Counted from the stretch's first letter, positions 32,376 to 51,019 are shown. The stretch is 51,582 bases of DNA from Elsinoe ampelina (GCA_010093995.1 ML992514.1:283437-335018); one strand, 5' to 3'. The notes: a model not told the origin generated them from the letters alone. A program made the numbers and translations.

Positions 32376-35300
32376 ATGGCTCATCAAGGCGGCGGTGGCC
32401 ATTACGATGATGGCTACGGCCATCAACCACAGCAGCAGCAGAATGATGGCTACTACCATGATGATCAGAACCAGGCCTACTATGACCACAACCAGGGCTA
32501 TGCCCAGAACGATGGCTATTATGATGATGGGTATGTGACACACGAAATCACATCGCAGTGCATAGCTGACATGATACAGCTACTACAACGAGCAGCAGGG
32601 TGGTCCTTACCAACAAGATGGCTATTACGACGCCGGCCAGCAAGGTTACCAAGACGAGTACTACAACGACCAATATTACGACCAAGGTGCCGGCGCTGGT
32701 GGTCAACAGAACTACAACAACCGCAACGGCAATGGCTACGGCCAGAGGCGAGGACGTCGTGGTGACTCTGAGGAAGATTCGGAAACATTCAGCGACTTCA
32801 CCATGAGGTCAGACATGGCTCGTGCAGCTGAGATGGACTACTACGGCCGTGGTGATGAGCGCTACAACAGCTACAACGATGGCCAGGGTCGCGGATACCG
32901 CCCTCCATCTTCTCAGATCTCGTACGGTGGCAATCGCTCCTCCGGGGCTTCCACTCCCGTCTATGGCATGGACTACACAAACGCTCTTCCTGCAGGTCAG
33001 CGATCGCGAGAGCCATACCCAGCCTGGACCTCAGATGCTCAAATCCCTCTGTCCAAGGAGGAAATTGAGGACATCTTCCTCGATCTGACCGCCAAATTCG
33101 GTTTCCAGCGTGACAGCATGCGCAACATGTTCGACCATCTCATGACGCTGCTTGACTCTCGCGCTTCCCGCATGTCTCCCAACCAGGCTCTTCTCTCCCT
33201 CCATGCCGACTACATTGGAGGCGAGAACGCCAATTACCGCCGCTGGTACTTTGCCGCTCACCTTGATCTTGATGATGCAGTCGGTTTCGCCAACATGAAG
33301 CTCGGAAAGGCCAACAGAAGAACCCGCAAGGCCCGCAAAGCTGCCAAGAAGGCCGCCCCTCAGAACGAGGAGCAGACTCTTGAGAGCCTCGAGGGCGACA
33401 ACAGTCTGGAAGCTGCCGAGTACCGATGGAAGTCTCGCATGAACAAGATGTCTCAGCACGACCGCGTCCGTCAGCTGGCTCTTTTCCTCCTTTGCTGGGG
33501 TGAAGCCAACCAGGTCAGGTTCATGCCCGAGGCACTCTGCTTCGTTTTCAAGTGCGCCGACGACTTCCTCCACTCGCCCGCGTGTCAGAACCGGGTTGAG
33601 CCAATCGAGGAGTTCACCTTCTTGAACAATGTCATCACACCTCTCTACCAATATTGCCGTGACCAAGGCTACGAGATCTATGATGGCAAGTACGTCCGCA
33701 AGGAACGTGACCACAACAACATCATTGGTTACGACGATATCAATCAGCTCTTTTGGTACCCTGAGGGTATTGAGCGTCTCAGCTTTGAGGATAAGTCCCG
33801 CTTGGTTGACCTGCCACCTGCTGAGAGGTACGAGCGTCTGAAGGACGTCGTCTGGAAGAAGGCATTCTTCAAGACCTACAAGGAGAATCGTTCCTGGCTT
33901 CACGCCCTTGTCAACTTCAACCGTATTTGGGTCATCCACGTGGGCGCTTTCTGGTTCTACACAGCCAAGAACTCCCCAACTCTCTACACCGACAACTACC
34001 AACAGCAGCTTGACAATCAACCTCCTGCTGCGACTTCCTGGTCTGCAGTTGCTCTTGGTGGCGCAATTGTGACGCTCATCAACATCTTTGCCACGCTTTG
34101 CGAATGGATGTACGTCCCGAGACGCTGGGCTGGCGCTCAGCACTTGACAAAGCGTCTTCTGTTCCTCCTGGTTATCTTCGCCATCAACGTCGGCCCATCA
34201 GTCTACATCTTCGGAATCAGCCGGACCAGCCGAATCGCTCTCATCCTCGGTATTGTCCAGTTCTTGATTGCGTTGGCCACATTCCTGTTCTTCTCCATTA
34301 TGCCTCTTGGTGGTCTCTTCGGCAGCTACCTGACTGGCAAGTCCCGTCAGTATGTGGCCAGTCAGACATTCACTGCAAGCTACCCGCGTCTTCACGGCAA
34401 CGACATGTGGATGTCTTACGGTCTCTGGGTCATGGTCTTTGGAGCCAAGCTTGCGGAATCGTACTTCTACCTGATCTTGTCCATTCGCGACCCTATCAGA
34501 ATTCTGTCCACGACACCCATTAACTCCTGTTTGGGTGATGCAATCTTCGGCGATGTTCTCTGTTTGCAACAGCCAAAGGTCCTCTTGATCATCATGTACG
34601 TCACGGACCTGTTCCTGTTCTTCTTGGATACCTTCTTGTGGTACATCATTTTGAACACGGTCTTCTCCGTTGCCAGGTCCTTCTACCTTGGTGTTTCTAT
34701 CTGGACCCCCTGGAGGAATATCTTTTCTCGTCTACCCAAGCGTATTTACTCCAAGGTTCTGGCTACCACCGACATGGAGATCAAGTACAAGCCCAAGGTT
34801 CTCATCTCCCAGATCTGGAACGCCATCATCATCTCTATGTACCGTGAGCACTTGCTCGCCATCGACCATGTCCAGAAGCTCCTCTACCATCAGGTTCCGT
34901 CCGAGCAAGAAGGCAAGCGCACTCTTCGTGCTCCTACCTTCTTCGTCTCTCAGGAAGATCACTCTTTCAAGACCGAGTTCTTCCCCACCCAGAGTGAGGC
35001 CGAGCGTCGTATCTCCTTCTTTGCTCAGTCACTCTCTACGCCCATTCCAGAGCCGGTTCCTGTCGACAACATGCCTACTTTCACCGTCATGATCCCTCAC
35101 TACAGCGAGAAGATTCTCCTCTCTCTGCGCGAGATCATCCGCGAGGACGAGCCATACTCCCGCGTCACCATGTTGGAATACCTCAAGCAGCTTCACCCTC
35201 ACGAGTGGGATTGCTTCGTCAAGGACACCAAGATTCTGGCTGATGAGACTTCTCAATTCAATGGCGATTACGAGAAGACCGACAAGGATACTCAGAAGAG

Positions 35301-38262
35301 CAAGATTGATGATCTGCCATTCTACTGCATCGGTTTCAAATCCGCCGCTCCCGAGTACACTCTCCGAACTCGTATCTGGGCATCTCTTCGCTCGCAGACT
35401 CTCTACCGTACCATCTCTGGTTTCATGAACTACAGCCGTGCCATCAAGCTTCTCTACCGTGTCGAGAACCCCGAGGTCGTCCAAATGTTCGGTGGCAACT
35501 CTGACAAGCTCGAGCGCGAGCTCGAGCGCATGGCTCGTCGCAAGTTCAAGATTATCGTCTCTATGCAGCGTTACGCCAAGTTCACCAAGGAAGAGCGTGA
35601 GAACGCCGAATTCCTTCTTCGTGCCTACCCCGATCTTCAAATCGCTTATCTGGATGAAGAGGCTCCACTCAACGAGGGTGAGGATCCTCGCATCTACTCT
35701 GCGCTCATTGACGGTCACTCTGAAATCATGGAGAACGGTATTCGCAGGCCCAAGTTCCGTGTCATGCTTTCCGGCAACCCCATTCTCGGTGATGGCAAGT
35801 CTGACAACCAGAACCACTGCTTGATCTTCTACCGCGGTGAATACATCCAGCTCATCGATGCCAACCAGGACAACTACCTCGAGGAGTGTCTCAAGATCCG
35901 CAGCGTTCTCGCTGAATTCGAAGAGATGACCACCGACAATGTTTCCCCGTACACTCCCGGCATGCCTACTCCCAAGTTCAACCCTGTCGCCATTCTTGGT
36001 GCTCGCGAGTACATCTTCTCCGAGAACATTGGTATCCTCGGTGACGTTGCTGCCGGAAAGGAACAGACATTCGGTACTCTCTTCGCTCGTACTCTCGCTC
36101 AGATCGGTGGCAAGCTCCATTACGGTCATCCTGATTTCCTCAACGGTATCTTCATGACTACTCGTGGTGGTGTGTCCAAGGCTCAGAAGGGTCTTCATTT
36201 GAACGAAGATATCTACGCTGGTATGAACGCTCTGCTCCGTGGTGGTCGCATCAAGCACTGCGAATACTACCAATGTGGAAAGGGTCGCGATCTTGGGTTT
36301 GGCTCCATTCTCAACTTCACCACCAAGATTGGTACTGGTATGGGTGAGCAGATGCTTTCCCGTGAATACTACTACCTCGGCACTCAGCTACCTCTGGATC
36401 GCTTCTTGTCCTTCTACTATGCTCACCCTGGTTTCCACATCAACAACGCCTTCATCATGTTGTCAGTCCAGCTCTTCATGTTCTGCTTGGTCAACTTGGG
36501 TGCTCTCCGCCACGAAGTCATCATGTGCAAGTACAACAAGGACGTTCCTATTACCGATCCTCTCGAGCCAACTGGATGCATGAACTTGGTACCAGTTCTT
36601 GACTGGGTCCAGCGTTGTGTCGTCTCCATCTTCATCGTCTTCTTCATCTCTTTCGTACCCCTGGTCATTCAGGAACTTACGGAGCGTGGTTTCTGGCGTG
36701 CTGCTACCCGTCTGGCTAAGCAGTTCTCCTCGCTTTCTCCTCTTTTCGAGGTGTTTGTCTGTCAGATTTATGCCAACTCCCTTAGTCAGGATCTTTCCTA
36801 CGGTGGTGCCCGCTACATTGGTACCGGCCGTGGTTTCGCTACCGCTCGCATGCCGTTCGGTGTCCTGTACTCTCGTTTCGCTGGACCTTCCATCTACTTT
36901 GGAGCTCGCATGTTGATGATGTTGCTCTTCGGTACCGTCACCGTTTGGGGATACTGGCTCTTGTGGTTCTGGATAACACTCGTTGCCCTTTGCCTGTCAC
37001 CTTTCATCTTCAACCCCCACCAGTTTGCTTGGAGCGACTTCTTCATCGACTACCGCGAATTCCTTCGCTGGTTGTCTCGTGGCAACACCAAGGCTCACCA
37101 GGCTTCTTGGATCGGTTTCGTTCGTCTCTCCCGTACTCGCATCACTGGTTTCAAGAGAAAGGCCCTGGGAGAACCATCCTCCAAGCTTTCCGGCGATACT
37201 CCCCGTGCACGCATTGGCTCCCTCTTCATGGGTGAAGTGCTCGGTCCTCTCATCTCGATCGCTGTCACTCTCATTCCATACCTCTTCATCAACGCCAACA
37301 CCGGTGTCACCAGGAACAACAACGAAACAGCCTCCAATGCCGCGCTGCAGCCAACACAATCTCTGATCCGTGTCGGTATCGTCGCTGGCGCCCCCGTCGC
37401 CATCAACGCTGGCATTGCCTTGGTTTTCTTCGCCATGGCCTGCTGTATGGGACCTGTCTTTAGCATGTGCTGCAAGAAGTTCGGTGCTGTTCTAGCTGCC
37501 ATTGCCCACGCCATCGCTGTCATCATGATGATTGCCTTCTGGCTCGTCATGTACTTCCTCGAGGGTTTCCAGTTCGCCAAGGCACTGCTTGGTATGATCG
37601 CTGCTGTCTCTATCCAGCGCTTCATCTACAAGATCATCATCACCTTGGCTCTCACCCGTGAGTTCCGTACCGATACATCGAATATCGCTTGGTGGACCGG
37701 AAAATGGTACTCACTCGGATGGCACACAATGTCTCAGCCAGGTCGTGAGTTGCTGTGCAAGATCACCGAGCTTGGATTCTTCGCCAACGACTTTATCCTC
37801 GGTCACGTCTTGCTATTCTTCATGCTGCCACCTCTCCTCGTCCCTTACATTGACAAGTTCCACTCTGTCATGCTCTTCTGGCTGCGTCCAAGGTACGGTC
37901 AATGCTCAATTTTGTTGTACACCTACTAACATCGTTACAGTCGTCAAATCCGTCCTCCAATTTACTCGCTCAAGCAGTCCAAGCTGCGCCGCAGACGTGT
38001 CATCCGCTACGCCATCCTCTACTTCGCCATGTTCATCCTGTTCGTGGTTCTCATTGTCGGCCCAAGCATTGCATCACGCTTCCTGACCTCGCTACCGTCG
38101 ATTCCCGTCGCTGGTCTCGTCCAGCCTACTGGATTGAACAACAACGATACGAGCGACCAGCCCACTGGTACCGCGACCCAGGGCGCTGCCGACGGTGGTG
38201 CCACCGGCACAGCTGATAGCGGTGCCGGACTTCGCCGCGCGTTCATGGAGTACGCTTTCTAA
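32376..38262 (+). CDS. FKS1: 1,3-beta-glucan synthase catalytic subunit; exons 32376-32530, 32580-37892, 37941-38262
   Basis: Tyr/Gln/Asp-rich N-terminus, [55 protein letters not shown] and multiple TM segments. Confidence 0.98.
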
Positions 38263-41520: not shown

Positions 41521-41876
41521 GGTGGGCAACTGTTACGGGGGTGCTTGTGGTAAGCGGAGCGATTGCACGATTGGGCCCAAGGCGGAAATACAGGCTGAAG
41601 ATAGCGTATGAAATCGTGAGAGTCGTTAGATGCGAGAGTGAGTCCTCAATCGCAAGTTGATGACAAGGTACACGCAGCTCAGCGTAGCCGTATACTCGAC
41701 CTCCGGGAGGTGCTATGCCAAGACTGGCGCTTTGCCCATTCGAGAATGACGTCGCCGTCTTCTGCTGCATAAAAAGTTATGGCAGAATTGCCCCTCGCCT
41801 TTTCGACTGTCAGTACGAAAGTAGACTTTCACTTAATCTGAATCTTCCTGGTAGATTGCAACACCTCTTGTCCAAC

Positions 41877-43079
41877 ATGGTCCGCCACAAGAAAGACTTC
41901 ACAGGCAAAGGTAAACGTCATGGCCCAGCAGACCGCACGACGAGACCTATGCCACCTCCGCGAGGTGCTTCCGAGGATGGATCAGATCAGGAGACTTCAC
42001 AAAGATACAGAAAACCATCATTCAAAGCTGCCTGCTGGGATCTGAATCACTGCGACTATAAGCGATGCTCAGGCAAGCGACTCATACGCCTCGGCTTGAT
42101 GAGGTCGCTGGGGATGAATCAGAAGCATCCGGGTGTCGTCATAAGCCCGAACGCGAAGATACTGGTATCGAGAGCAGATCTGCCAATCCTGGAGCAATTC
42201 GGAGCCGCAGTCGTCGAGGCAAGCTGGAACAGAATCAACGAAATCAACTTCTCGCGCATAGGCGGGAAGAACGAACGATTACTGCCCTACCTGATTGCGG
42301 CAAATCCCACGAACTATGGTAGACCGTGGCGGCTGAACTGTGTCGAAGCTCTAGCAGCCGGATTCCTCATATGTGGTCACCGCGACTGGGCAGAAGAAGT
42401 CCTCAGCACTTTCTCGTACGGCCAGGCATTCTTGGATATCAACGAGGAGGTCTTTGAGTGGTATGAGAAGTGCGCGGACGAGAAGGAGGTCAAGGAAGCT
42501 GAGGAACGATGGTTGAGAAAGATACAGGACGAGTACGAAGGGGCAAAGGAGAGCAAAGAAGCTGGCGGGACGGGATGGGGTGGAGGCAACATGAACAGAA
42601 AGAGAGGTCTCGTGGAGGTCGGTGATGGAGAGGGCGAAGAGTCGGACGACAACGAGTGCGTCAAGCTGAACGCTGGCTCGAATGGGGACGATCAGGATGA
42701 GGACGACGAGGAAGACGACGTCGAAGAAGAAGACCACGATCCATACGGTCTACCGCCCGAGGACTCTGATGACGAGGAGGAGATGGCAGAGCTGCGGCGC
42801 CGTGTACTGGCATCAAAGCCTTTCTCGAATCCACAAGTCGAAGAGAAACAAGCGCCAACATCCGTGAAGAGCCCTGAGCCGGTGGTCAAGCATGACTCCG
42901 ATGCTGAGTCAGGATCGGATATTGGCGACGATGACGACGAGTTCGACAATATCATGAACGCTCAGCCCGTTACAGATCGTACAGGAATCACTGCGAAACA
43001 GCGTCAGAAGCAACAGGACCTATTATCGGCCACATTCTCCAGGGCTGTACTCTCGGCACCGAGTAAACCGCTTTCATAG
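41877..43079 (+). CDS. TSR3: 18S rRNA aminocarboxypropyltransferase
   Basis: MVRHKKD start, WDLNHCDYKRCSGKRL, ERLLPYLIAANPTNYGRPWRLNCVEALAA and an acidic C-terminal tail. Confidence 0.95.
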   Translation: MVRHKKDFTGKGKRHGPADRTTRPMPPPRGASEDGSDQETSQRYRKPSFKAACWDLNHCDYKRCSGKRLIRLGLMRSLGMNQKHPGVVISPNAKILVSRADLPILEQFGAAVVEASWNRINEINFSRIGGKNERLLPYLIAANPTNYGRPWRLNCVEALAAGFLICGHRDWAEEVLSTFSYGQAFLDINEEVFEWYEKCADEKEVKEAEERWLRKIQDEYEGAKESKEAGGTGWGGGNMNRKRGLVEVGDGEGEESDDNECVKLNAGSNGDDQDEDDEEDDVEEEDHDPYGLPPEDSDDEEEMAELRRRVLASKPFSNPQVEEKQAPTSVKSPEPVVKHDSDAESGSDIGDDDDEFDNIMNAQPVTDRTGITAKQRQKQQDLLSATFSRAVLSAPSKPLS

Positions 43080-43325
43080 CCAAAGTCTCGAATTTAAAAG
43101 TCAAAGGCTTGAAATTCTAGCTTCTTGACCTGCAATACTCCGCCCAAATTGTGTGGCAATCACGCTTCTGGCCTGACTGCGGCACGCGACTGCCCCAAGC
43201 TGGTAAAAGATATAGTAAATCTTCTTGCGTCAGAACTCCTGGACTTTCTGCTACGTACGAGACACATATCTTTCTATTTTCGTATTTGCCCCTTGTATTC
43301 GCCGCCAGGAGCTGCATTCCTACAA

Positions 43326-44783
43326 ATGCGGCAAATTGACAGACCCAGCGAGTTAGGATGGATGGCACCTTGTTCTCCATACGCCATAATGCCAGAACTG
43401 GAAAACGGCCACTTCACCGGCCGATGGTTGCACTACCACTTGAGCAAGGATTAGAAAGTCTACCTCGAGCTGTCCGTGACAAACCACGTCAGCAAATCGA
43501 GAATCGGGAGCGAAGAAGGGGTCGGCCTGCTGGAAGATTGGCTACGCAAGATGCAATTTCTTCAGATCCCCGACGAGGAAATCTACCCTACGGTTCGGCA
43601 AGCGCAGTTCCCGTTGATCATCGCGACCGAGCTCTGTAATGACTATCAATATTTCGTCAACCGGCCAAAGATCCATTACATGCACGCGGGCATCGACATA
43701 GCAAATGATTTCAGCACAGATGTCAGGACTTGGGAAAGTCTCCGGAGCTTGTTACGTCACGACAGACTCAACAGATGCTTCGGCTGCTTGTCTCAGAGGA
43801 ACAGAGTGGTAGGATATGTTACCGAGCGTCATACAGAGGACTTGAGTGTGATCATGCGTACCCAGCCCCGACGGTTCCTGGGGTTCAATGTGGACGCAAT
43901 CATGGCGGACATCCGTGCCGGCATCAGCCATCTACATTCGCACGGTCTGGCGCACAATTGGCTCATGCCTGAGCACATAGTGCTTGACAAACAAGATCGC
44001 GCTGTCATCATTCACTTGCAAGGTACGCGACCATTCGGGAGCTGTATTCAATTACAACAACCCCGCAACAGAGCTCGACCCTACCAGGACCCTTCATCGA
44101 ATGCCAACATTAGTTTACGAATGCATGACCTTTACGCCCTTGACAGAATAAAGGAACAACTAGAGTGGGCACAAGAGGAATGGCAGAGCAGAATCATACG
44201 ACTGTTCCAGATTATCACCATGAAGCCACCACGCACTACCGCTCCACAGCCATCAAGCAACTCTTCATCGAAGAAGCGACAGCGAACAGACTCTCTCAGC
44301 ATGCCTGTTGCCAAGCGCCCGAGAGTATACCTAGCTCGTTCTTTGCAAGACCAACTGGCATTCCTCCTCTGCATGGCGTTTCCGCTCAATCTCACGCGCG
44401 CACGATGCCCTCGCCAGCGACCGCCCGAAATACTTCGACTGGTAGCCAAGAAGTTGGGGTCGAGTTTCATGGTAACACGGACTACGCAGCTGCAGCATCG
44501 TGTGATGGATCTACGACGGAAGGTCCACGAAGCGCAGAGCAGATATAACGGTTTGTTCAAATATATGACGGAGCGAGCAACGAAATTTCTTATAGAGGTA
44601 GACGAAGGGCGACAGCGGATGAAGGCCGAAAAGAATGTCTCAAGAGGGACGCAGACTGAACTGTACGGTGTGCGCATCCGGGAGCGAGCAAAGATACTTC
44701 TCAAGGAGAATTACGAAGCGCGGCTGCGGATCAAGGCCGAAAAGAACGTCTCAACGGGAACCCAGACGGACGATGCAGTGTGA
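43326..44783 (+). pseudogene. Degenerate protein-kinase-like ORF (pseudokinase) with helical C-terminus and two TQT motifs; single in-frame TAG at 43452-43454; may be expressed from ATG 43551
   Basis: Kinase-like stretch IRAGISHLHSHGLAHNWLMPEHIVLD...AVIIHLQG...DLYAL, with HxD and DFG positions degenerate. ORFs 43125-43454 and 43476-44783 share one frame. Confidence 0.55.
44571..44775 (+). repeat. Imperfect tandem duplication with 111-bp (37-aa) period
   Basis: GAGCGAGCAA occurs at 44571 and 44682. ERATKFLIEVDEGRQRMKAEKNVSRGTQTE aligns with ERAKILLKENYEARLRIKAEKNVSTGTQTD. Confidence 0.9.
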
Positions 44784-44926
44784 GGTTGCTCACGGCAGAT
44801 AGACACATTCTTTGCCTCCCTACGCAGGACAGATCGCGCTAATGATACATCCATTTTGTTCTTGGCCATTTAACTACCAAGCCCAGTGTGCCTCCCCCTC
44901 ACGCCTCCTCCCCTTTCCCTACCAGA

Positions 44927-46108
44927 TCACAGATACCTCGCATTCACCCTCTCCCCCCTCTTCACCCTCGGCGCCGTCCTCCCCGCCGGTATAGTCTCAT
45001 TCCCCGCCACAGTCTCATTGTAAATCAACGTCGCGATCCCCCTCCCCTGCTCCACCGCGGGATCCGAAATCAAACTCAACACCCGCGCCGTCGCATCTGC
45101 CAGCACGCTCTGCGCCACGTCGCCAAACACGTTGTAGATGCGCGCGATCTCCTGCCCTTCGGTCACGTCGTCGAGGACATCGACGAGTGTCTCCACGAAT
45201 CCACCTGCCGTTGCGCCGGGGCCGCCGAAGGTCGTCCCGATGTACGTGTCGGAGAGATCGGGGAGTTCTACTGGCGAGGAAGACGGGAGGATGGCCATGT
45301 CGGCGAGGACGCGTTCGATGTATGCCACGGAGCGGTCGATGAGGGATTTGCGCCACTGGCGGGGCGCGCCGACCTCTAAAGTGATAGCAGGCACGCCGGC
45401 GCGGATGAAGGTGGTTTCTACGCTCCCTGGCTCGCCCGGGTCGATCTTGATCACGTCTGCGGCGGTGAGTTTCGCGAGTCGCTCCACGCCGGGCAGGCGG
45501 AAGTCGGCGTAGCACCAGAGTGGCCCATCGGAGCCGGTGGAGACGGTGTGTAGGTCGATGGCCTGGTCGATGATGGTGGCGTTGCTCCAGACGTTGTTCC
45601 AGATGGTGTAGACGAGGGAGGAAGGGGCGGAGGCGCCGTCCGCTGGGTCGGAGCCGGGGAGGAGACGGTTGAGGTCCGTGAAGGTGCCGGAGGAGGCGGA
45701 GGAGCGGTAGAAGCGTGAGGCGAGGGAGATGCCGACGCGGTTGATGGTGGGGATTATGATGACTGTGCCGTTGAGGGAGGAGACGTTGGCTTCGAGGAGG
45801 CCGATGATGCGTTGGGAGATGCGCACGCCGTTGAGCTCGTCGCCGTGGATGGTGGAGGAGAGGGACAGGGTTTGTCCGTTGGTGAGGGAGGAGGGGGGGC
45901 CACGGGCGACGACGACAGGGACGTAGTACCTCAGGCCGCCGGAGAGTTCGGGGACTTCGAGCCAGTAACGTGTCACGGCGGAGGAGGGAACGTCGGCGAG
46001 GTTGAGTTGGGTGATGACGCGGTTACCCGAGATGATGTCGCCTGTGAAGTTTTGGGCGGTGGTCAGGGCGAGGGAGACTGCGGTGAGGAAGAGGGTGGTG
46101 AGCTTCAT
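44927..46108 (-). CDS. Secreted succinylglutamate desuccinylase/aspartoacylase-like (M14) Zn hydrolase, intronless
   Basis: Signal peptide MKLTTLFLTAVSLALTTA, HGDELNG, DLNR, IDLHT, TLEVG and a C-terminal barrel-sandwich segment (AGGFVE...VTEGQEIARI). Confidence 0.88.
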   Translation of the reverse strand: MKLTTLFLTAVSLALTTAQNFTGDIISGNRVITQLNLADVPSSAVTRYWLEVPELSGGLRYYVPVVVARGPPSSLTNGQTLSLSSTIHGDELNGVRISQRIIGLLEANVSSLNGTVIIIPTINRVGISLASRFYRSSASSGTFTDLNRLLPGSDPADGASAPSSLVYTIWNNVWSNATIIDQAIDLHTVSTGSDGPLWCYADFRLPGVERLAKLTAADVIKIDPGEPGSVETTFIRAGVPAITLEVGAPRQWRKSLIDRSVAYIERVLADMAILPSSSPVELPDLSDTYIGTTFGGPGATAGGFVETLVDVLDDVTEGQEIARIYNVFGDVAQSVLADATARVLSLISDPAVEQGRGIATLIYNETVAGNETIPAGRTAPRVKRGERVNARYL

Positions 46109-46559
46109 ACTGGCGGTGGTCGAACGCGGAGAGTGAAGGGGACGAAAGAACGGCTCTCGCGGAGGACGTCATGGTTTTGTACAGCCATTGCGGTTTGTGG
46201 ATGTCAAAACTTTCTGGTTGCTATCGATGCGCTTCATTCCCAGAAGAGCAGGCCGGGTGCAGGCCAAGGGCTTGGAAGCGGATCGTCTTAAGCTACCGGC
46301 ATTGTGGGCACGTAGGTGGCGGAGAAGCGATAAGATGGAAATGACTAACGAAGCTGGAAAAGATACTTACTGCACAATGGGCTTCACAGGGATGTATGCA
46401 TGAAATGAGAAGCTGAGAGAAGTGGAAACGAGGTTAAGAGGTGCAGCGTTTCATCGCGCAGAGCTGAGCCCCGCAGCCAATCACAGCTCGCCAGGTCTAC
46501 TACCAGAAAGTCTATCTGCACTTGGTGCCATGCACGTGACCTGACCAGCAAATGTGCTT

Positions 46560-49500
46560 CTATTCTTCGTCATCTTCTGTGCCTGACATACCTCCCATCT
46601 CTACGTCCTCCTTCGCCGCTGCCGCCTTGAGCTGATCCAAAGGGGTATCCGTACGTCTATCCAATGCCTCGATCGCGTCCAACGCTGCCCTCAACTCCGC
46701 CTCCTTGTAAGTGACACAAGGACCTGCAGTGCCGACCTCGATGCCACCGATCTTGACCGTGCAGTTCCATCCCTCCTTGTCCATAGCAGTCTTGACGTAC
46801 TCGACACTCTTCTCGACTGCAGCGATTCCCAACCTCTCCTTCGGATTCAAGACAATCGTTTTTCGCTCCAGCATGAGTCTCAAGTAGTGGAGCACACCAA
46901 GTTTCTCCAGGAAGTCCTCACAGGCAGCCACATTACCGCGAGTGTCGATGTAGATGGCACCCAAGATCGACTCCACAATATCAGAGAAGAATTTGGGCGG
47001 ATCCATTGCTGCAAGATCTGCCCAAGGGTATTCGACTCCCTGCTCGAGGGCCCATTCCACGCTATAACGATGAGTCTCGAAGGAGTCGAGTGCCTTTTGT
47101 CTTGCTGTAAGAAGTTCTCCTCCAGCGCGGATGAAGTCATGTAGGTGCACATCCCGGTGTGTGGCTGCGACGTCAAATCGTTCTCCCGACCGCACTACAC
47201 CTGCGTGTTCTTGCTCTACGTGGTAGCTCATGCAGCAGTATCCAAGAAACATGCCGTTGACGACAGCTTCATGATAGCTGTGCATCTCGTTGTGTCTTAG
47301 CGGAAGACTGTGCGCATACAGCTTCGGAACAATGACGAGGTCCAGTACTGCATCGCCCAGGAATTCAAGACGCTCGTAGGACATGCCGGTCTCGGTAGAG
47401 GCGGCATGGAAGGGTATCGAGGCATGTGTGATGGCCTCGACGAGGAGTGCAGGGCTCTTAAAAGTGTGTCCCACCAGGGTCTGCAATGTCTCGAGTGCCG
47501 CAGGAGTGGCGATGCGCGGCGGGGTGAGACGATTGAACAGCTCCGCAGAAGGGAACCAAGTCTCCGAATGGAGCAGAGATCTGAGGCAGGTATAACCCTT
47601 GTCAAGACCGCCGTCGACAAACGCAGCACCAATCAGCGCCTCCACAACATCAGCGAGAACTTTGGTGGACATCTCCCTGGTTGACTCTACATTTGCGGCT
47701 GTCGTGCTCGACGAATACGGTGGTCGCCACTTCGCACCGGTAAATGGCTTGCTCAGGATGTACTTCTCCAGTCCATGATGGAGCGCTGCTTTGGTAAGAG
47801 TGCTGTTGCAAACAAGATGAGTCTTCTTGCGGGTCAGGTATCCTTCCGGCCAAGTTGGGAACTGGGCCATGACCTGCAAGTGTGCACAGAGCTTGAGGAT
47901 AGCATCTCCGAGGTACTCCAGGCGGTTGTAATCATAGCCTTCACCGGCGGAGGGTGCGCTTATGGCCTCTCTGACGAGCGATGTGCTGGTAGTATCTGGT
48001 AGAAGAACACTACCAAGGTCTTGAGCGAGTAACGTCATATGCAGCCTGTGCATGAGTGACGGCACAAATGCAGCCAGAAGAGCAAAGTCCTGTGGCAGTG
48101 CATCCATGGTGCACTCATCAAGCGAGAATTGCCGTTCTGTGCTGTAAGCCAGATTCGTGTCTCGCGGCGGAACAGGGTGGAGGAAGTCCCGACGCTTTGG
48201 GAAAGGTACTACCACTGCCATTTGATGCCCTTCGATCTCTTCAATCCTTCGCAGAAGAAACGCTTTATTGTGGTAGTGCTCGACGTGGATCAATCCCCAG
48301 TCCTGACCGGAGGCCAGACCGTCTCTGCACCCTATGGACCCTCCTACCAGATCTGTGGCGATGTCGATGTAAATCGGGAAATCCAGACCTGCTCTCTCGG
48401 AAATTCGGCTGTTATACATGCTCATCATAAGCACGTGTGTGTTCCGCCTGGCGCGCTCAAGGCGAGATCCTACCAGCTTTACAGCATCAGTAGCTGTAAC
48501 CTTCACCGGCAATGCGACTTGCTCGTTCCAGTACAATATGAAGGGCTCGTCCTGTTCTACCGGAGCGGGCACTAGCATCGACATTGTCATGGGTCGACCG
48601 TCTGGTAGGGCCATCGCCAACGTCGACGAGTACCACGGGACCTGCTGAGCCGCGTCAGCTCGAGGGGAGGAAATCCGCGAGCTCTTCTGATTGGCGACTG
48701 TGACAATGCTGGTCTGGCGAAGCTCTTCCGAAATCTCGTCCGGAGTGTCCCTCAAGAGTGGGAGCAAATTGTCGTTGACAAGCCCAGCTTTGTGCAGGGC
48801 GATGTAAGCCTCGAATGCAACATCCTTGATTGCCGCTCCCTCGCTCCTCCATGACCAGACTGTCCGGGCAGACCGCACGTCTGGATGTACGAATGACGGC
48901 AGTACCACCGATGCGGACCAATTCTCAGGTCCAGCCTGCTCCGTGAAGAATGCTGGCCTTTTGTCGATGTAGCTGGATGTCAGAGTGCTAACCGCACAAA
49001 AGTGGTAGAGATGGGCCTTTGCATTATCCATTGTCAGCAGTGCTTGCGTCCCAGGTACGCGATAAGTCTTGCTTGCCAAAGCGTCTGCGTCATCGGCTTC
49101 GGCTTCGGCTCGCTCTCGATCAGCATCCATGTACTGTCGTCTCATCCTATCTTCATCCATCTGCCACTGCAGCGGTTTGTTCTTGATATCGTTGCTGGCG
49201 ATGAAGACGTAGTATCGTGAATCCTTCTGTCGTGCTCGTCCGCGCCTCTGGATGAATCCTACCAGGGTATCGGGCAGGTCGAAGTTGATGACCAGGTTAC
49301 ACGCCGACACATCGATACCCTCTTGAAGCACACTAGTGGCGATGATCAGGTTCTTTGTCCCATCGCGAAAATCTGCAAGATTGCGTCTCTGCTGTTTGGG
49401 GTCGGTGAGGTCGGGTACAGGAGCTTTTCGCTTCTCGGAAGTCGAGGTCCCAACAAAAGCACCAACGCTGTAGTGTCGAGAGAGCACGTCGGCCTCCTTG

Positions 49501-51019
49501 AGCATGCGAGAGAGCTCGGTGGCGATCACACGCTCTCTGACGAATATGATACCGCGAAGGCTCGGGCTCGCTTCTTTGTTGAGGAGATCGACGAGCTCTT
49601 CTACCCTCCTGGCAGGACTTGCCAGACCTGCATCCGTCCTTGGCTGGCTGATGTTCGAGATGACGGAGTCGAGTAGGTTTGCAACATGCTGCGCTTCTCT
49701 CGACAGGAGATCTGTTGCAAGGACGTTTCGAGTATTCTTCGCTTGAAATGCGGCAAGCTGGAGGCGGAAGTAATTCTCGGCAGCAGGATACCCAAGCTTT
49801 TCGGCGAGAGTCTCAAGTTGCCGGTTGAGCGTTTTTATTTGGTCGCTGCAGGCTGTTTTACGCTTCTCCAGCACTTTCTGAAGGCGATGGTCTTGTCCTG
49901 CAGTTGCATGGCTGCTGATCTCTACAACATACGGGTCGCTGTTGAAGTCATAATTTATTACCAGACTTTGCAGTCTTTGGCAGATGACACTTGGACCAGG
50001 GTAGTCAACGGCATCAACCTGGTAATTGACGACTGTGACTTCTGGTGGATAGACGTGCTTGTTCAGCTCTTCGAGCCACTGCTGTGGCGTTGTAGCTTGA
50101 GCATCGAGATTTGACTCCAATTGCCTGTTCCGGTCAGCTATGTCGTGAATCGGTTGCGGGAACTGGGAGCGGACAGCGCGAGGCAATATACGACAATCCG
50201 TGGGAAGGACTGGTGCAAGAAATACTTACTCTAGGCTTCCTTCTCTCGCATTCATGGTAGGACTGGCTGTCAATCCAAGTATCTTCGGCACGACAGATCC
50301 TGCGGCTTTTTCGACATGGTAGAAATTGGTCATGATGATATTCATCCCATGCTTCTTGATTGCATGGTGCGCTGGCAGATGTCAGTCGCGACCTGCAACG
50401 AGTCTCGATGGACTTGCCTTCGTCGAAAATCAGTAATCGGATCTGATTGATGCGGACAAATCCGTGAGTCAGAGCATCTTTGAGTACATCCGGTGTCCCG
50501 ACGACAATATGGACGCCCTTCAGAGTGGCACTCCACAGGCGCTGCTCTGACCACTTGTCTGTGTTGTCCGACCCAAGTAGCGGTATGATACGATATGCTG
50601 GCAGTTGTTGCTGTAGAATCTCGTAGTGCTGTAGGCAGAGCTCGACGCTATTTGCCAAGAACCATATCAGCTAGCAGTGGTCAGTATTTTTCAAGGACAG
50701 CTGCGAGCCCCAGATCCCGTGAGCAAGCCATTGAAGGAATACCGACTCACTCTATCATCGCCGGCAGCTGATTGCTCAAGCTCATGTCGGATGCGTGCGA
50801 CAGCGACAAGGGTCTTACCGCTGCCCGTCGGCATCTGCTTAGCATGAGTAATTGTACAAGAAATACCAGCAGGGGCTTCGTGCTCACCACCACGATCGCG
50901 TTGCCGGACAGGGCGGCTTGAAGCATCTCGCGCTGGTAGGATCGGAGAACTATTTCAACACCTTCATCAGCCACCGTGTCCGGCGGTGGAGCCGAGAGAG
51001 TCCCGCCTGCAGACTCCAT
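46560..51019 (-). CDS. DCL2: Dicer-like protein 2; exons 51019-50888, 50834-50751, 50670-50418, 50371-50230, 50124-46560
   Basis: LRSYQ, MPTGSGKT, spliced FDEAHH, LGLTASP and QRRGRAR (helicase). Dimerisation region AKAHLYHFCA. RNase IIIa NRLEYLGDA, RNase IIIb ERLEFLGDA and a C-terminal dsRBD-like segment. Confidence 0.93.

Follow-up and report, generated by a model that had tools for sequence, protein, structure and literature searches.

An Elsinoe ampelina pseudokinase with two LC8-type motifs in a lineage-specific tail: a candidate LC8 client and a probable error in the deposited gene model

A gene of the fungus Elsinoe ampelina that is deposited as a short hypothetical protein emerges from this analysis as a candidate new client of the dimerisation hub LC8 and, in addition, as a probable case of erroneous annotation. 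The reading that we prefer, to which we assign a probability of about 0.5, is that the gene encodes a maintained pseudokinase and that LC8 dimers dock on its Elsinoe-specific tail at two sites, 37 residues from each other, which would yield a parallel, two-rung dimer.

The window, that is, the whole stretch of 51,582 nucleotides that was analysed (GCA_010093995.1 ML992514.1:283437-335018, from E. ampelina, a grapevine fungus), contains on its plus strand a single stop-to-stop open reading frame (ORF) of 442 codons at 43455-44783. Translation from the first in-frame ATG, at 43551, gives a protein of 410 residues (P0001), with the stop codon at 44781-44783 (Table 1). The deposited 'hypothetical protein BDZ85DRAFT_252394' (P0002, 269 aa) matches the beginning of this ORF with 100% identity. 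The coordinates, the frame and the motif positions given in the first-pass annotation of this DNA were all reproduced on recomputation, and so was its observation that the frame stays open for more than 400 codons despite the loss of catalytic residues; when the part of the frame that encodes the tail (44211-44780) was shuffled with dinucleotide composition preserved, only 2 of 5000 shuffles stayed open. The neighbours are ordinary housekeeping genes, and those annotated by Pfam give no hint of a mobile element or of a gene cluster around the locus. The upstream neighbour (41688-43076, plus strand) is a Tsr3-like ribosome biogenesis gene (Pfam Ribo_biogen_C), and the convergent one (44930-46168, minus strand) is AstE/AspA-like by Pfam; farther off, Pfam identifies a Dicer-like gene with Ribonuclease_3, Dicer_dimer and Helicase_C domains (46563-50225, minus strand) and the FKS1 glucan synthase gene (32575-37926, plus strand). 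Across from the tail, the minus strand contains an antisense ORF of 192 aa (44132-44710); it matches no Pfam family and has a poor codon score, and is therefore probably a shadow of the plus-strand frame.

Table 1. Features of the E. ampelina pseudokinase locus, in window coordinates
Feature	Coordinates	Strand	Basis or remark
Leader, 32 codons, in frame before the first ATG	43455..43550	+	Resembles the N-terminus of the E. batatas protein
Proposed single-exon CDS, 410 codons plus stop (P0001)	43551..44783	+	ORF, profile match, codon scores, shuffles
Degenerate small kinase-like domain	43554..44204	+	Unbroken family-profile match, E 1.8e-49; AlphaFold2
Catalytic-loop remnant HNWLMPEH, residues 135-142	43953..43976	+	Family H-N-D-L-N/K-P-x-N; here D->W, N->H
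HLQ in place of DFG, residues 155-157	44013..44021	+	D->H
Deposited 'intron', 188 nt	44023..44210	+	Within the profile match; encodes RPFGS and S..MHDLYALDRIKEQLEW; most likely coding
Lineage-specific basic tail, residues 221-410	44211..44780	+	K+R 40, D+E 17
Bipartite NLS-like KKRQR-x9-KRPR	44271..44324	+	Pattern fit; pLDDT under 50
Predicted long helix, residues 304-361	44460..44633	+	AlphaFold2; no significant heptad pattern
Repeat copy 1, 37 codons, ends VSRGTQTE	44550..44660	+	Sequence alignment
TQT motif 1 VSRGTQTE, residues 363-370	44637..44660	+	Break between helices 304-361 and 368-401
Repeat copy 2, 37 codons, ends VSTGTQTD	44661..44771	+	Sequence alignment
TQT motif 2 VSTGTQTD, residues 400-407	44748..44771	+	Low-confidence C-terminus

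The N-terminal half of the protein belongs to a fungal family of small kinase-like proteins for which we know of no name. A HMMER scan of 1.84 billion representatives retrieved 329 proteins at E<=0.001, 33 of these at E<=1e-10, and the relatives that were looked up or scanned are fungal and about 250-330 aa long. All 18 relatives scanned pass the Pfam Pkinase cutoff, and the family profile matches IRE1 with an E value of 1.4e-16; judged by these similarities, the family is clearly part of the kinase superfamily. Its members, for example, KAI1078520.1 ('kinase-like protein', Whalleya microplaca) and XP_051317792.1 (Hypoxylon trugodes), are true homologues of residues 2-218 of the E. ampelina protein, with which they share the H-N-(D) context of the catalytic loop, the RPFG motif and the final S..HD..L..I..L helix. 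In contrast to the E. ampelina protein, however, they keep the K, E, D and N residues and the DFG motif, carry about 80 additional N-terminal residues and end right after the domain. The family itself shows some unusual features: the catalytic loop reads H-N-D, not H-R-D (N in 67 of 68 rows), the block DFGSC..PFG..GT.GW is conserved, and the proteins end about 50 residues past the DFG, which makes for a C-lobe that is very short for a kinase.

The kinase-like fold suggested in the first-pass annotation is borne out by structure prediction and by the family profile. The AlphaFold2 model, built from 70 aligned sequences, has a mean pLDDT of 79.2; within residues 1-223, the block pLDDT is mostly 84-98, with a single dip to 67 at residues 171-180. 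A Foldseek search against the PDB returned at least 500 matches at E<=0.001, and among the matches listed, 48 of 48 are protein kinases, with TM-scores on the target of 0.28-0.50. At the sequence level, Pfam Pkinase (PF00069) scores 18.4 bits, below the gathering cutoff of 31.7 (E 0.0015), and covers only profile positions 54-137; the best hit to a PDB kinase has an E value of 8.6e-4. The profile of the family, made from 68 rows with both Elsinoe proteins left out, aligns with the main frame in one unbroken match over positions 84-290 of 317; none of the five remaining frames gives a real match. Profile positions 1-83, the start of the N-lobe, find no match in any frame of the region 42900-45000, and the N-lobe in the model consists of three strands only, short of a complete N-lobe with a glycine-rich loop.

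The loss of catalytic residues turned out to be more extensive than had been noticed, with five positions replaced where the first-pass annotation counted two. The beta3 lysine (K in 65 of 67 family rows) is N37; the alphaC glutamate (E in 66 of 68) is D57; the aspartate and the asparagine of the catalytic loop (D in 61 and N in 65 of 68 rows) are W137 and H142, respectively; and the DFG aspartate (D in 63 of 67) is H155. Overall, the protein retains the consensus residue in 25 of the 44 conserved columns of the family. Given a kinase fold in which all five catalytic positions are replaced, the E. ampelina protein, on the evidence of its sequence, is a pseudokinase, and an N-terminally shortened one.

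Among 5.8 billion clustered proteins, close similarity was confined to one entry, P0003 (227 aa) from Elsinoe batatas, in agreement with the lineage restriction proposed at the outset: close relatives are limited to these two species. The N, W, H and H substitutions are common to both, and the surrounding AHNWLMPEHIVLDKQDRAVIIHLQ is 100% identical in the two species, so that the dead state appears to be older than the species split and to have been maintained, as opposed to reflecting ongoing decay. An indel of 33 nt, a multiple of three, separates the two genes, and over the compared stretch, which ends before the TQT repeats, no stop codon is forced in the main frame of E. batatas. The species differ at the start of the gene. 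The Met-Gly start of the E. batatas protein corresponds to GTG ACA at the matching E. ampelina site, an absence that the first-pass annotation missed; the ATG at 43551 has an A at -3, and translation in E. ampelina probably begins there. In E. batatas, the orthologue (P0003 residues 1-30) begins with MGNHVSK, which fits the N-myristoylation pattern MGxxxS. With GTG ACA at this site and no ATG before 43551 in E. ampelina, the two species may differ in the N-terminus and, perhaps, in membrane targeting. The E. batatas model also lacks 24 residues in the alphaC-beta4 region (window 43713-43790, about residues 55-80); these amount to 72 nt, a typical length for a fungal intron, so the gap may represent a second mis-called intron instead of a deletion.

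Downstream of the domain, the main frame continues into a tail that probably arose as an extension past the ancestral stop codon. In a 17-row alignment, all 15 non-Elsinoe rows end no more than about 30 residues past the last domain helix, and the E. ampelina ORF runs about 190 residues further; the origin of the tail beyond the ancestral stop is suggested by this normal end point of the family members. Searches for tail homologues among proteins of 104-333 aa found none, and a search with the whole protein among proteins of 30-224 aa likewise yielded none. The ESM Atlas gave no usable match to the tail, Pfam only VMAP-C at E 0.0077, below the cutoff, and the PDB no hit with an E value below 0.86; scans of metagenomes, for which the protein and a degenerate pattern of the repeat end served as queries, returned nothing.

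Several elements can be recognised within the tail. A classical bipartite nuclear localisation signal (NLS) consists of two basic residues, a spacer of 10-12 residues and then at least three basic residues in five; K242-R243, an 11-residue spacer and KRPRV conform to this pattern at the level of sequence. The KKRQR/KRPR signature reported in the first-pass annotation is thus present, with a spacer of nine residues and not the eight that were originally counted. AlphaFold2 predicts a second helix at residues 368-401, in addition to the one listed in Table 1. Of the 'heptad-like helix' that had been described, the helix is predicted and the heptad is not: hydrophobic periodicity at the a and d positions of helix 304-361 was reached by 232 of 2000 shuffles, and that of helix 368-401 by 1703 of 2000, in a crude test as opposed to a trained predictor, so that neither helix exceeds its shuffles as a candidate coiled coil. 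A homodimer prediction for residues 290-410 scored 0.02 against a mark of 0.32, which we regard as evidence in neither direction. The 37-aa duplication claimed for this region is real, albeit diverged: the two copies of 111 nt stand in tandem and are identical at 73 of 111 bases, or at 70 of 93 over the last 93; the duplication is absent from the output of Tandem Repeats Finder.

LC8 is a universal eukaryotic dimerisation hub, and both repeat copies end in a motif of the type through which its clients dock. The flanks were judged by V at -5, D or S at -4, K or R at -3 and D or E at +2 around the TQT anchor. Motif 1 is identical at all eight residues to the LC8 optimum obtained by phage display, and motif 2 fits the consensus at -5, -4, -2, -1, 0, +1 and +2; the LC8-type motifs, as originally proposed, are real and of the highest quality. 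These matches stand out in the window: its six-frame translation (103,160 residues) contains 11 TQT triplets, and only these two combine V at -5, S at -4 and D or E at +2. Among 151 other proteins compared, mostly family relatives, TQT occurs in two, and in neither is it consensus-like or C-terminal. Both motifs adjoin long predicted helices. In the model, DSSP assigns coil at residues 362-367 and past 401, with a block pLDDT of 56 at 361-370 and of 45 at 401-410; the predicted placement in a helix break and in a low-confidence C-terminus is compatible with linear motifs, though no proof of them.

VSRGTQTE is described as the sequence picked by phage display as the best binder of DYNLL/LC8 (PMC3078936), which agrees with what the first-pass annotation states of this octapeptide and of its exact match in EML3. 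The monomeric peptide is given a Kd of 0.08 uM in two papers (PMC3078936, PMC6607443), and the single exact match among human proteins, EML3, is represented there by a fragment that binds DYNLL with a Kd of 50 nM (PMC3078936). With one occurrence in the human proteome, as stated in the same source, natural exact matches to the in vitro optimum are rare (PMC3078936).

Signals of translation and selection in the tail are mixed. By codon usage, the main frame is the best of the six in every segment, and the codon score of the tail is low, 0.043 bits per codon compared with 0.221 +/- 0.134 for the known genes of the window. When the two repeat copies are compared with each other, dN/dS in the main frame is 0.54, and over the last 15 repeat codons (R.KAEKNVS.GTQT.) it drops to 0.12, with 5 synonymous and 3 replacement changes, ratios that rest on few changes. 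The other two frames contain stop codons; their ratios exceed 1 when the longer spans are compared, and they show zero synonymous changes in the last 15 codons. A dN/dS below 1 for the repeat copies is thus seen in the main frame only. Comparison with E. batatas is possible for an upstream part of the tail, where the +2-frame protein model of that species fixes two of every three DNA bases over 67 codons. The visible changes in these codons number 14.5 at main-frame position 3 and 11.5 at position 1; with the two positions nearly equal, this part of the tail appears to be weakly constrained at best.

Taken together, these observations can be cast as a mechanism. A basic, Elsinoe-specific tail of about 190 residues would have become fused to a catalytically dead small kinase-like protein, and a 111-nt segment of this tail would have been duplicated, with the TQT-type docking motif for LC8 (Dyn2/NudG) retained in both copies. 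One LC8 dimer would grip two chains at equivalent motifs; with a spacing of 37 residues between the two motifs, the tails of both chains would be held in parallel like the uprights of a two-rung ladder, so that two pseudokinase domains could be brought together as a non-catalytic scaffold, and the bipartite basic signature may carry the protein into the nucleus. Translation of the full frame, LC8 binding, dimerisation and nuclear import are the steps that we infer. As for the pseudokinase-scaffold reading put forward in the first-pass annotation, its elements of fold, catalytic loss, open frame, lineage restriction, motifs and selection signature hold up, and that of a heptad coiled coil is not supported.

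One challenge to this mechanism comes from the public gene model, under which the frame with the TQT motifs is never translated. As the first-pass annotation did not mention, this model splices the region out of frame: the deposited protein tracks the ORF to ...AVIIHLQ, continues in the +2 frame from 44211 and ends at 44548, which implies a frame-shifting intron at 44023-44210. In its favour, the E. batatas protein is likewise modelled into the +2 frame after HLQ; the donor, GTACGC, agrees with the fungal GTRNGY pattern; and codon usage in 44211-44549 does not reject the annotated frame, with scores of -0.021 for the main frame and -0.052 for the annotated one that do not separate the two. However, the alignment of the family to the ORF continues across the supposed intron, through RPFG and then S..HD..L..I..L. 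Since the supposed intron encodes, in the main frame, the conserved end of the domain, 44023-44210 is most likely coding, and the deposited model is probably wrong. The same stretch falls within the confidently predicted fold (helix 190-223), whereas the alternative frame matches neither the family nor any family in Pfam and is identical at just 41 of 67 residues between the two Elsinoe species; furthermore, 188 nt would be long for a fungal intron. The agreement between the two annotations may itself be explained, speculatively, if that of E. batatas took the E. ampelina protein as a hint. Shorter introns of 49 or 65 nt from the same donor would run into early stops. Four sequencing runs of unknown kind provided short Logan contigs, at a depth of about 2-8, that showed neither joints nor differences; some of these, possibly derived from DNA, follow the genome colinearly across 44022/44023 (two records) and across 44210/44211 (a single record of 746 nt) and are uninformative on splicing and expression. 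On balance, we consider it very unlikely that the deposited intron is genuine and that the gene ends at 44548 as a protein of 269 aa; the E. ampelina gene is probably intron-less.

Even if the main frame is the coding one, the locus might be a decaying relic that lost its function along with its catalytic residues and its start, in which case the tail would be untranslated or unselected and the motif match a coincidence spread by the duplication. The catalytic residues are indeed all gone, E. ampelina lacks the start codon that its E. batatas orthologue has, substitutions relative to E. batatas in the visible part of the tail are near-neutral, codon bias in the tail is low, only two species hold the gene, and no RNA dataset is on record for 43200-45000. 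We nevertheless rate such decay as improbable: it fits poorly with an open frame of 442 codons and a tail that shuffling so seldom leaves open, with an indel in a multiple of three and the lack of a forced stop in E. batatas, with pseudokinase substitutions that occur in both species amid identical surroundings, and with the dN/dS below 1 that the repeat copies show in the main frame alone. About equally improbable, in our estimate, is a real protein in which the TQT repeats serve a purpose other than LC8 binding, either as a TQ cluster for checkpoint kinases of the Mec1/Tel1 type or as loops between the helices of a basic tail that binds nucleic acid. There are three TQ dipeptides within 100 residues (312, 367 and 404), the tail is strongly basic, motif 1 lies in a short break between long predicted helices that could be a hairpin turn, and the TQT sites of ASCIZ/ATMIN were initially interpreted as an SQ/TQ cluster. 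Checkpoint-kinase sites, however, require only S/T-Q, and identity with the eight-residue optimum exceeds this; moreover, V-5, S-4, G-2, T-1, Q0, T+1 and an acidic residue at +2 are kept in both copies through three synonymous changes. The maintained pseudokinase with LC8 docking sites remains the reading that we prefer.

Within the preferred reading, a more specific scenario is possible, although we put it forward as doubtful: a young, Elsinoe-specific tail came from a run past the stop codon of the ancestral small kinase, and selection drove an LC8 motif in it to the thermodynamic optimum and duplicated it. If true, this would be a natural instance of the birth and optimisation of a motif, through which a dead kinase was turned into a very tight bivalent LC8 clamp; such a clamp would act either as a nuclear, LC8-dimerised scaffold or as an LC8 sponge.

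Parts of the proposed architecture have counterparts among known LC8 clients. The protein would operate in the manner of those clients in which a TQT site is combined with a helical segment. The human microtubule-binding protein EML3 has the identical octapeptide beside a helical or coiled-coil segment (PMC3078936); in contrast to the E. ampelina protein, with its two motifs on a pseudokinase, EML3 combines one motif with WD-repeat domains, and the two have no homology outside the motif. Nek9, a human NIMA-family kinase, is a kinase-fold protein with an LC8 site in the C-terminal tail beside an oligomerising coiled coil, and its partner binding is regulated by LC8 (PMC5716973). Unlike the E. 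ampelina protein, which lacks the five catalytic residues, Nek9 is catalytically active and regulated by autophosphorylation, and it has a single LC8 site together with an RCC1 domain; there is no homology between the two beyond the kinase superfamily. Among fungal proteins, yeast Pac11 and Nup159 contain several neighbouring sites for Dyn2 (LC8) that are reported to drive dimerisation (PMC3727929). These two are conserved components of dynein and the nuclear pore, respectively, unrelated in sequence to the E. ampelina protein, and their motifs lie in disordered linkers with no kinase-like domain attached. Among the matches listed for literature naming both 'pseudokinase' and 'LC8', none describes such an architecture in its title or in the opening of its abstract, and the 151 other proteins compared include no example of it either.

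To our knowledge, few LC8 clients are known in filamentous fungi. A fungal pseudokinase with two LC8-type motifs, one of them the exact optimum octapeptide, would be a clean new client and would exemplify the acquisition of a high-affinity linear motif by a lineage-specific tail. The wider impact is modest, given that only two species, both plant pathogens, have the gene and that nothing connects it with pathogenicity. For annotation, the analysis flags, in two deposited Elsinoe entries, a likely wrong gene model in which a frame-shifting intron cuts across a conserved domain.

Other arrangements of the small kinase-like domain were seen elsewhere in the parent family. A Dothideomycete protein (P0048, 912 aa) is a dynamin-family GTPase, with Dynamin_N and Dynamin_M, to whose C-terminus the small kinase-like domain is fused, and another protein (P0046, 453 aa) contains two tandem copies of the domain.
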